DNA of 64,000 nucleotides. Source: an uncultured Arcobacteraceae bacterium (GTDB taxonomy: Bacteria > Campylobacterota > Campylobacteria > Campylobacterales > Arcobacteraceae). The stretch is from NCBI GenBank assembly GCA_964022095.1, contig CAXHZO010000001.1, positions 64,001 through 128,000 of the forward strand, written 5' to 3'. Under the pieces are notes generated by a model. That model ran no database searches and was not told the DNA's origin. It was given only the letters and a program-made list of their open reading frames with translations. Of this stretch, positions 40,274-50,334 are shown in pieces; positions within the stretch are counted from its first letter, which is position 1, and each line of letters begins with the position of its first letter. Both the position numbers and the translations under genes were made by a program.

Positions 40274-40415
40274 TTAATCTAAGTTATTATCAAGTACTAT
40301 ATAAACTATTTTACAACTTTATTTGGAATACTCATATCCAAAGTTAAATATACTACTGGTGCAAGAGTATAGTTTGCTAATTTTTCATCTTAAGTAGTAC
40401 TAAGCAAAATATTTC
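40274..40415 (-). pseudogene. Decayed paralog of the 41245..41577 secreted protein
   Basis: Minus-strand translation NILLSTT*DEKLANYTLAPVVYLTLDMSIPN ... CKIVYIVLDNNLD* aligns to NISVGTTQDERLANCTPTSGVYFTLDMSTPN ... CKISYVVLDSTLN*. It has an internal stop, deletions and no 5' end. Confidence 0.85.
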
Positions 40416-40754
40416 TTATCTATACTGGATTGTATACACTTTACAGTATCCATTCATATTTGTACTACCTGACCACTTATCAAACGTTGTAGAAGTGTAC
40501 ACTCTAACATCATTTTTTGCATGGTATGCTGATAATATGGCACTATAAGTAGCCTCAAACCCTACATCATCTTTTTGAATATAATAACCATAACAATCCT
40601 CATGGCTATTTTCAAGTCTAAATATTACATCTCCACCCTTTGAAGTTGTTGTATTATATACACCAACAAAATTAATTTTTGTTATTGGAGAGTAAAATGT
40701 TGCAGATAACATACACGTTGTCACTAGTAATACTGAAATTAAAATTTTTTTCAT
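40416..40754 (-). CDS. Small secreted protein, AB5-toxin B-subunit-like (candidate)
   Basis: Signal peptide; Cys pair; FEATYSAILSAYHAKNDVRVY helix-strand motif. Confidence 0.55.
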   Translation of the reverse strand: MKKILISVLLVTTCMLSATFYSPITKINFVGVYNTTTSKGGDVIFRLENSHEDCYGYYIQKDDVGFEATYSAILSAYHAKNDVRVYTSTTFDKWSGSTNMNGYCKVYTIQYR

Positions 40755-40763
40755 ATTTTTCCT

Positions 40764-41075
40764 TTATTTTGTAATAGTTATTGATTTAGCAATCATGTTT
40801 TTACCTCTACATCCAGATATTCTAAATACTACATTAGTAGATGCATGGAATGAAGACAAAGATATAGATAAAATTTCATTATACATTTTATTTGTAGGAC
40901 TTACATAGATTCTTGGATTAATGCACCCCTCAACTACAGTAGGATTATCTATAGACAAGAATAAGCCTTCTTCTGCCGCTCCAGTTGCGATATGTTTAAT
41001 AGTTGAGGCAGGTAAGTTTGCATCTGCATTTGAGATACTAAATGCAACAAACATCAACAGTATTAATTTTTTCAT
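40764..41075 (-). CDS. Small secreted protein, AB5-toxin B-subunit-like (candidate)
   Basis: Signal peptide; Cys pair; YNEILSISLSSFHASTNVVFRISGC. Confidence 0.55.
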   Translation of the reverse strand: MKKLILLMFVAFSISNADANLPASTIKHIATGAAEEGLFLSIDNPTVVEGCINPRIYVSPTNKMYNEILSISLSSFHASTNVVFRISGCRGKNMIAKSITITK

Positions 41076-49100: not shown

Positions 49101-49838
49101 ATTTCCAAACAAATAGCTCAATGTATAAGAAGAAATTTCAGTATTATTTGTTTTTATAGAAACTTTTAGTAATTTCTTTGAAAAATTAATTGGAACAGTT
49201 CTATTATAAATCGTTCTTGAATCTTCCCTATTTTTATAAAAAAAATCTATTTTATTATTTGCATATGTAATTTGTAAAATATTTTTAGTTGATGAATCAT
49301 ATTTAAAATTTATTTCATTACCATATCTATCTTTTATTTTATTAACTCTAAAGCTTACATCTAAATCTTTTGAATCAGTAGTTTTGCCATATTGATAAAT
49401 TAGACCATCTTTTGTATAAACAGTCCAGCCTGTAGATTCTTTCAAAATTTTTGAGTAATTATTTATCTCAGTGATATATCTTGTATTAGAGCCATAAGTT
49501 GAAGAATTGCTATATGTTAAAAGTTTTTGCCCATCTAAACAAAAGTTATAATTTCTAGATGAATCTTTTTTCTCGCTAAAAAGTCTTTGATTACATTTTG
49601 TTATTTGAGATAAACCATTTAAAGAAAAGCCTACTCCTAGTACTCCATCAAAATTATTTGATGAATTATAACTAAAAGATAAACTTGGCTTTAAACCTGC
49701 TGTTCCTTTAGGAGTAATTATTTCTAAAGAATAATTTGCACTACCTTGATTTACAGCAAACTCACCTTTTGTAGCTCCTATAACTGAAGCATTAATATAT
49801 GTTAATGCAACTAATAGTAATATCATTATGTTTTTCAT
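43113..49838 (-). CDS. Sec-signal Rhs/YD polymorphic toxin (SpvB-like N-terminus, FG-GAP/PVL-like propeller, TcdB-mid-like region, YD repeats, Rhs core, C-terminal toxin)
   Basis: Signal MKNIMILLLVALTYINA; PKGTAGLKPSLSFSY; seven DxNxDGxxDI repeats; YD repeats; RGYTGHE, MNGRVYDPIIGRFLSAD and NNPYKYTDPSG motifs. Confidence 0.93.
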   Translation of the reverse strand: MKNIMILLLVALTYINASVIGATKGEFAVNQGSANYSLEIITPKGTAGLKPSLSFSYNSSNNFDGVLGVGFSLNGLSQITKCNQRLFSEKKDSSRNYNFCLDGQKLLTYSNSSTYGSNTRYITEINNYSKILKESTGWTVYTKDGLIYQYGKTTDSKDLDVSFRVNKIKDRYGNEINFKYDSSTKNILQITYANNKIDFFYKNREDSRTIYNRTVPINFSKKLLKVSIKTNNTEISSYTLSYLFGNIRNIEECINSKCLEKLNFEYSGGHLGFVDNTNKIHNDFGYAQSSNTSTNPRMFIDTDLDGYQDILFFGNDGVYISKNNGNGTFNSKVKVSNSFSSSLGWGTNHPRLMLDINKDFLPDIIGFAGDGVYISKNLGNNTFSPPQKISNFFGAGSGWNITNHIRTFVDLNADGLADIVGFASDGVYVSTNTGNFIFSAPKRIITSYGYSAGGWRSQNHIRLINDVNADGLPDIIGFGNSSISVSYNKGNNSFSNPKAILNDFSYNQGWRVGKHPRSLIDINADGYPDIVGFDANGVYVSYNKGDGTFLSKVKVINDFGSNHGWLSNYTRKLVDLNNDGLPDILGYKNDGIYISYNEGSNSFRSKIKVSSLNWTDSKILKILNDTNADGIVDLSYFNNGIEVLYGDGKFHKLTKITNNKNQTININYSDLRDSGIYSSSTNLTYPKRTVKSSPMKVVKSFTINDGAGGANTTNYTYKNFSFDIERGSLGFGQITAKNIESDSKSIVNYNQVYPYIGMVTSSYSYLNNTLVSKNVNYFAKKISGNNYQVYNNKNIAYNYNYDSNNLLTTKTTIKSQPDIYGNIPTLTTITLGNSETFKKIITNSYDNYDSTWILSRLKNSKVTHTSTGNRSVVRKSSFEYNSSTGTLTKEIIEPGNSKALTKTYSYNSNGNKVSETISGAGITTTTTKYQYDSYGINQTKVINPLNQSETRAYDIRNQLISLTGPNGLTTKWQYDKMGRKTKETRADGNYTTWTYAWSGDGHKVTEKINGKFPVTVYYDSLGRKVKTEKIGFDGKTIFEEIEYDNLGRKIKTSTPYFEDESPEYIEYEYDEANRLVKVESPAPDNQTAVETIEYNGFTTIKTNAKGQTKTTEINAIEKVVRINDGSTIEYEYDAVGNLIKTTDAKNNEILISYDIFGNKISQNDPDLGKWTYKYNSLKQLVSQTDANGNTTTFTYDKLGRVTKKVTKEGTLTYQYDVGNKAIGKINKEVGIGVTKEYTYDNYGRNSQVKTTIEDKIYTQKVLYDSLGRVSKTVEPNNITITNNYNNYGYLESITTPKLNATSKDKAKLIAEMNYDIQEYLKNKKLAVEYQNQIIEYESKVSRYKVILDIYKNDTSAGAALDKLKNHVDSLIDLIDSLQKLADDYNARAVNLNLNRNDEWLDFIEDADSEIFTMYNSFGSSLVEIAQNSLSFLEELKAKEAENKHLLYCGQIGGISVFCPDKMTNSTITSYDTEDNILFYGTSVQIVSYYEKALKDLEGDLSYIKDLRQKQKYYKQLSNAYQNRSSAYNEIANSDLVYFYKVLEQNSFGVVTSYLSGNGLETKKEFDSSGTLNKITTGYDSGDEIRNLTFKYDILSNVINKNDEKLQVEHDFIYDSLNRLKYANINTKDTNSILSYNYDELGNITYKSDVGYYSYATSRPHAVSKVGNNTYTYDANGNMTKNADKTITYTSFNKPNTIKTASHVVRFKYDANNSRFKKTSNSDTTHYIGKSYEKNFYANGSVQEKYFIYAGGKLVSIFSQTDSQYDVKYLHYDNLGSIDTITNYHGLVVDRMAYKPFGKQLNLDKYGNEPGDKNDAYSLFVNKDISSTEKKLSTNRGYTGHEHIKEAGFIHMNGRVYDPIIGRFLSADPHIQDSKDSQSYNRYSYVKNNPYKYTDPSGFFWKKIKKAFKKYWKAIVTIAAVAVVTWLTAGTMTAFVAGWGTSFGTAAGFGALTTTTLGSIVAGALTGAVAGFAGGLIGSVLNGGSLGDGLQAGLTGAVFGAIGGAVAGGIGGTYGHESSFLNGGGSAAVKKSILHGISRAAINKAQGGRWSSGFWSGFLTSGFSPGTTMGGSGSGGFALRTAISGVIGGTASEISGGKFANGAVSGAFVHMFNAEDIITMVGGGLQIIAGTALLSTGWLAPAGVMLIAHGSNNMYEGYTGDSGLLRDIYDYNVGKGYYKYFDVGISAVGAAPNLLARTGSKVITNYYPGKAQISTPVYKYQTTAGKLSLGIETYLSGRTLNE

Positions 49839-49950
49839 TTTATCTACCTAAAATTATTTGTTAACTTTTTGTTAATGATTTTACTTTTAATTAAATAATA
49901 TTAAGCTTAATTTTGTTATTATAATATAATTTTTAATAAAGGTACTTATT

Positions 49951-50334
49951 TTGGGGAAATATTTTGGGATAGCTTTTGTATTTTTTTTATCAATATGTGG
50001 TTATATAATCTTTAGTGATAAAAAAGAAGAAATTAAGGTTACAAAAAAAGACAAGAATATACAATCCGTTGAACAAAGAGAAATAATGACTAAAAACTCA
50101 AAAATCTTTAATGAAGAAAAGTTAAAAAATGATAAAAAAAAAGTTATTACTGAGATTGAAACAAAAATAAACAATAAATCATCTGATATTGAAACTATCA
50201 TTAGTCAGGCTGATAAACTAATTGAAGATAATAACTTAGACACTTCTTCAATTAATAAAGCCAGTAATCAAAGAATTGATAAAATAAACAAAAAGTATCA
50301 AGAACTCAAGAAAGACCTTGAAAACCTTAATTAA
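49951..50334 (+). CDS. Hypothetical membrane-anchored coiled-coil protein divergent from rhs
   Basis: TTG start after AAAGG; N-terminal TM; charged helical remainder. Confidence 0.65.
   Translation: MGKYFGIAFVFFLSICGYIIFSDKKEEIKVTKKDKNIQSVEQREIMTKNSKIFNEEKLKNDKKKVITEIETKINNKSSDIETIISQADKLIEDNNLDTSSINKASNQRIDKINKKYQELKKDLENLN

Follow-up and report, generated by a model that had tools for sequence, protein, structure and literature searches.

B-subunit-like small proteins beside an Rhs polymorphic toxin in an uncultured Arcobacteraceae bacterium: a toxin-locus-associated family with a predicted AB5-type fold

The window analysed here, a stretch of 64,000 nucleotides (nt) from an uncultured Arcobacteraceae bacterium (assembly GCA_964022095.1, contig CAXHZO010000001.1, positions 64,001–128,000 of the forward strand), contains a single minus-strand gene run (40240–49838) made up of a gene for an Rhs polymorphic toxin, immunity-like genes, an orphan toxin tip, four genes for small secreted proteins and the remnant of a fifth (Table 1). 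The four small proteins are the new part of the locus and come from a large family that neither Pfam nor NCBIfam annotates. This family is B5-like and associated with toxin loci: its predicted fold is that of the B subunits of AB5 toxins, and its genes recur beside Rhs genes in distant hosts. We tentatively favour the view that the small proteins are secreted surface-binding (probably glycan-binding) accessories that act jointly with exported polymorphic toxins, this Rhs being one example. A first-pass annotation of the window had listed the same parts, every one of which was found on the minus strand among the open reading frames (ORFs) and in the sequence, and had proposed that they form a hybrid of an AB5 toxin and an Rhs cocoon.

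The small genes encode proteins of 103, 110, 103 and 112 amino acids (aa), here P0001, P0004, P0003 and P0002, and are arranged in two duplicated two-gene cassettes. The proteins have signal-peptide-like N-termini and contain cysteines; lipoprotein identity was considered and ruled out by eye, the cysteines lacking a preceding lipobox. The second, third and fourth proteins are 17–24% identical to the first. Conserved between the cassettes are 90 nt over the leader and the first codons (89% identical) and the junction between first and second gene; their coding bodies cannot be aligned. Conserved 5′ handles in front of unalignable bodies fit swappable modules and support the exchangeable cassettes envisaged by the first-pass annotation. 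The fifth-copy remnant retains about 24 codons, with an internal deletion and the start codon gone (read by eye). The four genes are the sole copies of the family in the genome, and rhs is its sole RHS gene.

None of the four small proteins matched anything in Pfam or NCBIfam, and a word-based search returned 7 relatives only. A profile search of 1.84 billion representative sequences gave 1331 members with an expectation value (E) of at most 1e-3, of which 127 had one of at most 1e-10; almost all are stand-alone proteins of about 100–140 aa. An independent profile of 139 sequences, from which the four proteins of the window and their four closest relatives (P0001–P0008) had been left out, recognized all four (P0001, E 4.4e-12; P0004, E 2.9e-15; P0003, E 6e-20; P0002, E 5.3e-36). 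Clusters of DUF5992, SubB and StxB came up in an Atlas feature search and served as leads only. DUF5992 (PF19454), a family of unknown function whose members have the length of the small proteins, is matched weakly by 2 of 55 family representatives (23.0 and 18.7 bits, under the 23.8 cut-off) and by none of the four window proteins; no mention of it was found in the full-text literature searched. If the fold match described below holds, the 1331 cluster representatives would show that B-subunit-like proteins have expanded greatly beyond the classical toxins.

AlphaFold (AF2) models of P0002 (predicted local distance difference test, pLDDT, 88.3) and of P0001, the most divergent 103-aa protein (pLDDT 89.5), share the order β1-β2-β3-helix-β4-β5. 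In an exhaustive comparison with solved structures, with matches scored by Z, the best match of P0002 was ArtB (Z 10.8; root mean square deviation 2.8 Å, 93 residues aligned). It was followed by typhoid PltB (Z 10.5; 2.3 Å, 88 residues), pertussis S2/S3 (Z 10.4; 2.5 Å, 88 residues), PltBd (Z 10.1), pertussis S5 (Z 10.0; 3.1 Å, 85 residues) and the B subunits of cholera toxin/heat-labile enterotoxin (LT) and Stx2 (Z 8–9); the heteropentameric B-ring structure 9kyc was also among the matches. The best match of P0001 was pertussis toxin S5 (Z 10.6; 1.9 Å, 79 residues). These B-subunit matches cover the whole mature chain, and generic nucleic-acid oligonucleotide/oligosaccharide-binding (OB) folds scored Z 7.8 or less. 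In both models, then, the small proteins are OB-fold proteins nearest to AB5 B subunits, as the first-pass annotation had supposed.

The likeness to B subunits (pertussis S2/S3/S5, ArtB, PltB, SubB, LT-II and Stx2 B) extends to small size, a signal peptide and a conserved cysteine pair, in addition to the OB fold with its central helix (Z 8–10.8) and the predicted head-to-tail self-association through edge strands and helices. The differences lie in sequence and in genetic setting. No membership of a B-subunit sequence family was found for the small proteins, and arrays contain as many as 12 of their genes, genomes as many as 38. No gene for an ADP-ribosyltransferase, a ribosome-inactivating protein or a subtilase A subunit was found in the locus or the window, the neighbour being Rhs.

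Self-association was modelled with four copies of mature P0002 (residues 19–112), co-folded and compared with 3 controls. The score was 0.84, against 0.00 in the best of the controls. In the calibration, which used two copies, 20 of 30 proteins whose structures are pairs of one chain attained the score mark, as did 1 of 23 whose structures are single chains. Contacts are shared between runs to 98% or more, with a partner pLDDT of at least 89. In the model, strand 105–111 and the helix of one copy lie against strand 29–36 and the helix of the next, and the middle copy uses both faces. The predicted contact is thus head-to-tail and of ring type, like that of B pentamers. Of the pentameric ring proposed in the first-pass annotation, the self-association is borne out by prediction in four copies.

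The genomic context of the family was sampled in species-representative genomes scanned with a single peptide pattern from a narrower alignment. This gave 19 loci which, having been found with one pattern, are a biased sample centred on the 112-aa type. At 6 of them family genes adjoin a full-length homologue of the window Rhs (23–39% identity): arrays of 8 genes in Vibrio ouci, 12 in V. pacinii and 6 in V. coralliilyticus, arrays of 6 and 6–7 genes in two strains of Rheinheimera pacifica, and one gene in divergent orientation in R. soli. The linked homologues carry SpvB and RHS domains, most with FG-GAP and three with TcdB_midN; one, cut by the end of its locus, shows RHS only. Such an Rhs is abutted by 5 of the 6 arrays of at least six genes among the 19 loci. 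Whole-genome searches added nine Rhs-linked loci in three genomes (Microbulbifer, Pseudoalteromonas and Aliikangiella). Together with the window, 16 Rhs loci were counted, so that the co-occurrence with signal-peptide SpvB/FG-GAP Rhs genes, which the first-pass annotation had wished to see checked, extends to 15 further loci.

In 12 of the 16 the arrangement is compact, with small genes and Rhs transcribed from one strand, and in 3 the small genes lie directly upstream of Rhs; at locus L031 a small gene leads a tight run of small gene, 72-aa ORF and Rhs. Directly 3′ of the toxin no family member was seen (0 of 16 Rhs loci, 0 of 2 CdiA loci), the place being taken by unrelated genes encoding transmembrane (TM) proteins, Sel1, Imm26, DUF6984 or unknown proteins. 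Since the tips and immunity genes vary from locus to locus while the small family stays, the latter tracks the conserved body of the locus and not any one tip. The best relatives of P0004 among the fetched loci sit in Rhs-adjacent arrays (L035, E 6.3e-26; L019, E 3e-13). Five genomes carry 38, 37, 21, 16 and 16 family matches (G066, G062, G070, G065 and G068, the genomes of loci L023, L014, L026, L022 and L028). Of these 128 genes, 15 are at most 10 kb from a BC-type Rhs gene where 4.2 are expected, a 3.6-fold excess in which the members of an array are not independent.

The expansion of the family is one of marine Gammaproteobacteria, and several arrays lie at contig ends in draft assemblies. 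One family locus (L020) is found at the chromosomal site (GATase/aminotransferase/AstA) where three other Vibrio species have their Rhs loci. At two loci (L016:8137–12270 and L050:2487–5458) a pectate-lyase-like beta-helix protein (Pect-lyase_RHGA_epim) is encoded directly upstream on the same strand, and may be a second recurring type of partner.

The Rhs protein consists, in order, of a signal peptide, an SpvB-like N-terminus (residues ~25–268), FG-GAP blades, a YD/RHS shell with a helical insertion, the core and the tip. Its N-terminus, read by eye, resembles a Sec signal peptide. The shell is recognized by RHS_repeat in Pfam (PF05593, E 8.9e-29) and by TIGR01643 in NCBIfam (E 2.2e-23), and the propeller (residues ~290–650) by Pfam FG-GAP_3 in 6 stretches (E 5.9e-23); the six blades also appear as six 101-nt DNA repeats (48037–48959) spaced 162–168 nt apart. 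Behind them lies the Rhs-associated core, identified with the NCBIfam model Rhs_assc_core. The DPxG motif occurs once, as DPSG at residue 1894, and, by analogy with what is known of the family, is presumed to be the autoproteolytic boundary of the tip. Pfam detects no PAAR or VgrG family in the protein, and no SpvB at E 1 or better. Residues 25–268 nonetheless align at 33–35% identity with the SpvB-positive N-termini of the homologues at L013, L027 and L037, and the architecture therefore appears to be that of the described ‘TcdB/TcaC-type’ polymorphic toxins. The window Rhs is thus of a known kind and is not itself new.

Toxins of this type have been described as a signal peptide followed by SpvB, an integrin-like propeller, RHS and a variable tip (Zhang et al. 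2012, PMC3482391). The window locus shares with them the order of domains, the variable tip behind the Rhs core, the downstream gene for putative immunity and the orphan cassette. It differs in that Pfam SpvB matches only the homologues of the window protein, and in that the published description, in the portion of text examined, names no B-subunit-like accessory family and does not contain the term ‘AB5’. Similarities also exist with the TcB-TcC cocoon of the Tc (ABC) toxins, namely an SpvB-like N-terminus, an FG-GAP/TcdB_midN propeller, a YD shell and a tip behind an aspartyl autoprotease motif. In contrast to the Tc toxins, B and C are here one chain with a probable Sec signal, and the glycine-rich tip looks membrane-active and not like an enzyme. 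The presence of immunity-like genes points to bacterial targets, unlike the situation in the Tc toxins.

The helical, coiled-coil-like insertion in the YD shell comprises some 200–250 aa (residues ~1300–1560; 45159–45941, minus strand). It was considered as a possible docking site and gave a weak FlgN match (E 0.038), but BLAST matched it in none of 15 homologues from Gammaproteobacteria. An unaligned gap of like size is present in the Vibrio homologues, the insertion appears to be missing from the two Rheinheimera pacifica homologues (L015 and L017), and the homologue of a relative of the window's genome (G004) has a similar stretch by eye.

The tip of the Rhs is 20% glycine, with 19 GxxxG motifs and several hydrophobic segments, and matches DUF4225 weakly (E 2.7e-5; 24.1 bits, below the 25.9-bit cut-off). 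Its glycine-rich first 215 residues are common to 5 of the 15 gammaproteobacterial homologues, and the last ~125 are variable. This glycine-zipper part (43500–44147, minus strand; residues 1898–2113), kept in the homologues at L015, L034, L024, L037 and L033, ends in the recombination handle. Its conservation in 5 of 15 distant homologues and its end in the handle argue therefore for a pre-toxin or membrane module that is shared and precedes a variable end of ~125 aa. The orphan tip has the handle in common with the resident tip: 157 nt of DNA (43492–43648 in the resident tip) are 95% identical, and the first 43 aligned residues are 91% identical to Rhs residues 2074–2116, after which the two diverge.

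The succession of tip, TM gene, orphan tip and TM gene is the usual layout of toxin, immunity gene and orphan cassette. The 89-aa and 105-aa proteins have 3 hydrophobic segments each and, from their position after each tip, are putative immunity proteins. The former has no family match in Pfam or NCBIfam; the latter resembles, by eye, the product of a 94-aa gene that follows the Rhs homologue of G004, a genome with the same type of tip and a TM immunity gene.

Genes for a type VI secretion system (T6SS) or a TcA-type protein had been reported as absent from the window, and this was borne out: neither family was found among the 47 other ORFs. TssC was not found in the genome, which is 99.99% complete, the control being positive in Escherichia coli. 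As a further difference from the Tc toxins, no TcA was found in the genome; the TcA_TcB_BD model (PF18276) gave no match, but its control matched in no genome either, hence this search is uninformative. The three other ORFs of at least 2200 aa are adhesin-like and not TcA-like; the scan did not extend to ORFs of 1000–1500 aa. The genome encodes two secretins.

An exported Rhs protein with accessories has a precedent in Bcn-A of Xanthomonas perforans. PMC7259588 describes an Rhs-family bacteriocin of 1398 aa, composed of plug, propeller and YD barrel, whose activity in the supernatant disappears in a type II secretion mutant. Accessory ORFs of 124 aa and 290 aa are required for activity, one of 100 aa is required in part, and the immunity protein resides in the inner membrane. 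The window Rhs likewise combines plug, propeller and YD shell with a TM immunity-like gene and small neighbours, Bcn-A being the shorter protein. A full-text literature search, supplements being outside its scope, found no link of B-subunit-like proteins to Rhs, and by term search Rhs is absent from the accessible text of a 2023 AB5 review (PMC11610972).

Starting from what was computed (gene content, fold, predicted self-association and recurrent linkage), we infer how export, cleavage, immunity, target binding and a link to the action of the Rhs might fit together. The region would be a polymorphic-toxin island, its Rhs a Sec-exported, single-chain, TcB-TcC-like cocoon with SpvB-like plug, FG-GAP propeller and YD shell. 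The glycine-zipper tip, probably membrane-active, would be cut off at DPSG, and the orphan tip could replace it by recombination at the shared 157-nt handle. Immunity would be given by the 3-TM protein encoded directly after each tip and not by the four small genes. The latter would give rise to secreted, disulfide-bearing OB-fold proteins built like AB5 B subunits and probably ring-forming. These might, for instance, attach the toxin or the producer to target cells, and divergent paralogues in recombining cassettes would widen the range of targets. The small proteins could dock on the cocoon as an A-B5-like complex or act in trans.

Several results weigh against such a role for the small proteins, some concerning their likeness to B subunits and others their linkage to the toxin. 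B-subunit families of Pfam (Pertussis_S2S3, SLT_beta, Enterotoxin_b etc.) matched neither the four window proteins at E 1 or better nor the 55 family representatives at E 0.01 or better. The list returned by Foldseek against the PDB consists almost entirely of B subunits, with a best E of 2.7e-3 and none at 1e-3 or better. Sequence searches of solved structures gave nothing significant, whether with one protein, a 4-row or a 147-row alignment; in the profile search pertussis S5, with an alignment spanning the helix and the following strand, had a non-significant E of 0.36, behind an unrelated chain at E 0.33. The self-association result may reflect likeness to solved B pentamers, its calibration is for two copies, not four, and the input alignment was of our own making.

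As to linkage, 113 of the 128 family genes counted above are more than 10 kb away from any BC-type Rhs gene, the fetched flanks are free of toxin genes at 12 of the 19 sampled loci, and 2 of 10 genomes with non-Rhs family loci gave no BC-type Rhs with the window query. An Rhs-specific subfamily holding the four window proteins was sought and rejected, none being found, and the best matches of P0001 are in non-Rhs contexts. The family also occurs downstream of CdiA-type DUF637 proteins and their immunity genes (L020:1585–10199 and L047:66–7151) and amid two B_lectin-domain proteins and an Ntox44 toxin (L049:2461–11639); these CdiA- and Ntox44-type neighbours have delivery or binding parts of their own. 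Other copies lie in prophage-like regions (L014, L021 and L050) or among housekeeping genes. Finally, a search of 60 relatives of the window's genome did not reveal the small family. Three of these, G004 among them, have Rhs homologues at 36–41% identity, the closest found, and their genomes lack the family even at E 0.1; this Rhs type can therefore exist without it.

The dispersal of the family is what would be expected if the small proteins were independent secreted lectins or adhesins that share variable islands with Rhs by chance of place. Orphan B subunits without an A subunit have indeed been described, in the available parts of PMC9120245, PMC11610972 and PMC12064104, and most copies away from toxins, numbers of up to 38 and 37 per genome and the lack of the family in the genomes with the closest Rhs homologues all fit this explanation. 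We consider it somewhat unlikely, given the 3.6-fold excess near BC-type Rhs genes and the compact same-strand layout in 12 of 16 loci, with a small gene heading the Rhs run at L031. Large arrays, moreover, mostly abut such an Rhs (5 of 6), and the linkage holds over distant hosts, with Rhs proteins at 23–39% identity.

An improbable explanation is that the small proteins form a periplasmic orphan-immunity or decoy array (‘poly-immunity’) against the periplasm- or envelope-acting toxins of competitors. Signal peptides, tandem divergent paralogues downstream of toxins of several delivery types (Rhs, CdiA and Ntox44), and copies in prophages and as scattered singletons are consistent with this; the distribution of immunity superfamilies such as SUKH resembles that of the small family. 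Immunity was the alternative that the first-pass annotation itself had set against its model, and the position of the genes speaks against it, as no family member is the first gene after a tip at the 16 Rhs and 2 CdiA loci and the family lies upstream of Rhs in 3 of the 16. Both tips of the window already have TM immunity-like genes of their own, the arrays contain no interleaved orphan tips, no Pfam Imm family matches the window proteins or the 55 representatives, and the fold and predicted ring are those of extracellular binding subunits.

The small proteins as accessories of exported polymorphic toxins remain our preferred reading, of which a strict AB5/Rhs holotoxin, as the first-pass annotation had it, is a subset: a homo- or heteropentamer would dock on the cocoon, for example on the propeller, in place of TcA. 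We regard this as very doubtful, as no A2-like linker is evident, the closest Rhs homologues come without the family, and 1 to 12 small genes per Rhs locus do not fit a fixed stoichiometry, although the B5-like fold, the predicted ring-like self-association, the recurrent linkage, a probable Sec signal on an Rhs for which no T6SS or TcA partner was found (the TcA control being silent) and the existence in nature of heteropentameric B rings (9kyc among the matches; accessible text of PMC12629460) would suit it.

It is equally a long shot that B-like rings are the receptor-binding part of Sec/type II-exported Rhs cocoons, taking the place that TcA has in the Tc toxins, with paralogue arrays setting the target surfaces. 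If true, this would be a new toxin architecture, in which warhead and binding subunit are both carried in exchangeable cassettes. This locus and the 15 or more like it offer a way to test how Rhs cocoons lacking T6SS, TcA or a cell-wall anchor arrive at their targets and get inside.

Table 1. Features of the Rhs locus, with positions counted from the first nucleotide of the window
Feature	Position	Strand	Remarks
Rhs polymorphic toxin	43113..49838	-	2241 aa; first gene of run
Rhs-associated core ending in DPSG	44148..44357	-	aa 1828-1897; TIGR03696, E 4.4e-17
Toxin tip	43116..44147	-	344 aa; glycine-rich, several hydrophobic segments
Immunity-like membrane protein	42851..43120	-	89 aa; 8-nt overlap with rhs stop
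Orphan toxin tip with recombination handle	42322..42783	-	153 aa
Immunity-like membrane protein of orphan tip	42004..42321	-	105 aa
P0001, small secreted B-subunit-like protein	41589..41900	-	103 aa; cassette 1, gene 1
P0004, small secreted B-subunit-like protein	41245..41577	-	110 aa; cassette 1, gene 2
P0003, small secreted B-subunit-like protein	40764..41075	-	103 aa; cassette 2, gene 1
P0002, small secreted B-subunit-like protein	40416..40754	-	112 aa; cassette 2, gene 2
Decayed fifth small gene, 110-aa type	40311..40413	-	74% DNA identity to 41361-41463
Conserved 5′ leader and handle, cassette 1	41878..41967	-	90-nt repeat, 89% identical to twin
Conserved 5′ leader and handle, cassette 2	41053..41142	-	90-nt repeat, twin of that of cassette 1
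Terminator-like hairpin closing the run	40240..40265	scores on both strands	10-11 pairs, then T run; consensus match only

A promoter scan remained at chance level (69 found, 69.6 expected). Upstream of rhs lies a divergent gene (49951–50334, plus strand), whose 127-aa product has a hydrophobic anchor at the N-terminus followed by a long tail that looks like a coiled coil. In G004, which lacks the small family, similar genes of 124 aa (L064:6832–7206, plus strand) and 217 aa (L064:5894–6547, minus strand) were recognized by eye directly upstream of the Rhs homologue, and the anchored coiled-coil-like protein may be a conserved partner of the Rhs locus. Some 4 kb downstream of the Rhs locus of the same relative are two genes with prepilin-type N-termini (L064:17952–18865; by eye, type II secretion pseudopilin-like), with RelE-like toxin genes and a transposase-like gene in between.

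The remainder of the window is housekeeping in character. It includes a sulfur-oxidation set (53314–62763, minus strand) with SoxY, SoxZ, a SoxA-like cytochrome, a molybdopterin oxidoreductase, c-type cytochromes, a DsrE-like protein and a rhodanese, which fits a marine sulfur oxidizer. Leaving aside runs flagged as possible sources of the DNA, 92% of the sampled words of the locus were found in marine or seawater metagenome runs of two studies. A LapG-like protease (Peptidase_C93) and a LapD-like receptor are also encoded in the window (27191–30065, plus strand), and a 3930-aa RTX/cadherin/Big_9 adhesin on another contig (C3:206505–218294) is of the type likely to be the substrate of this pair.

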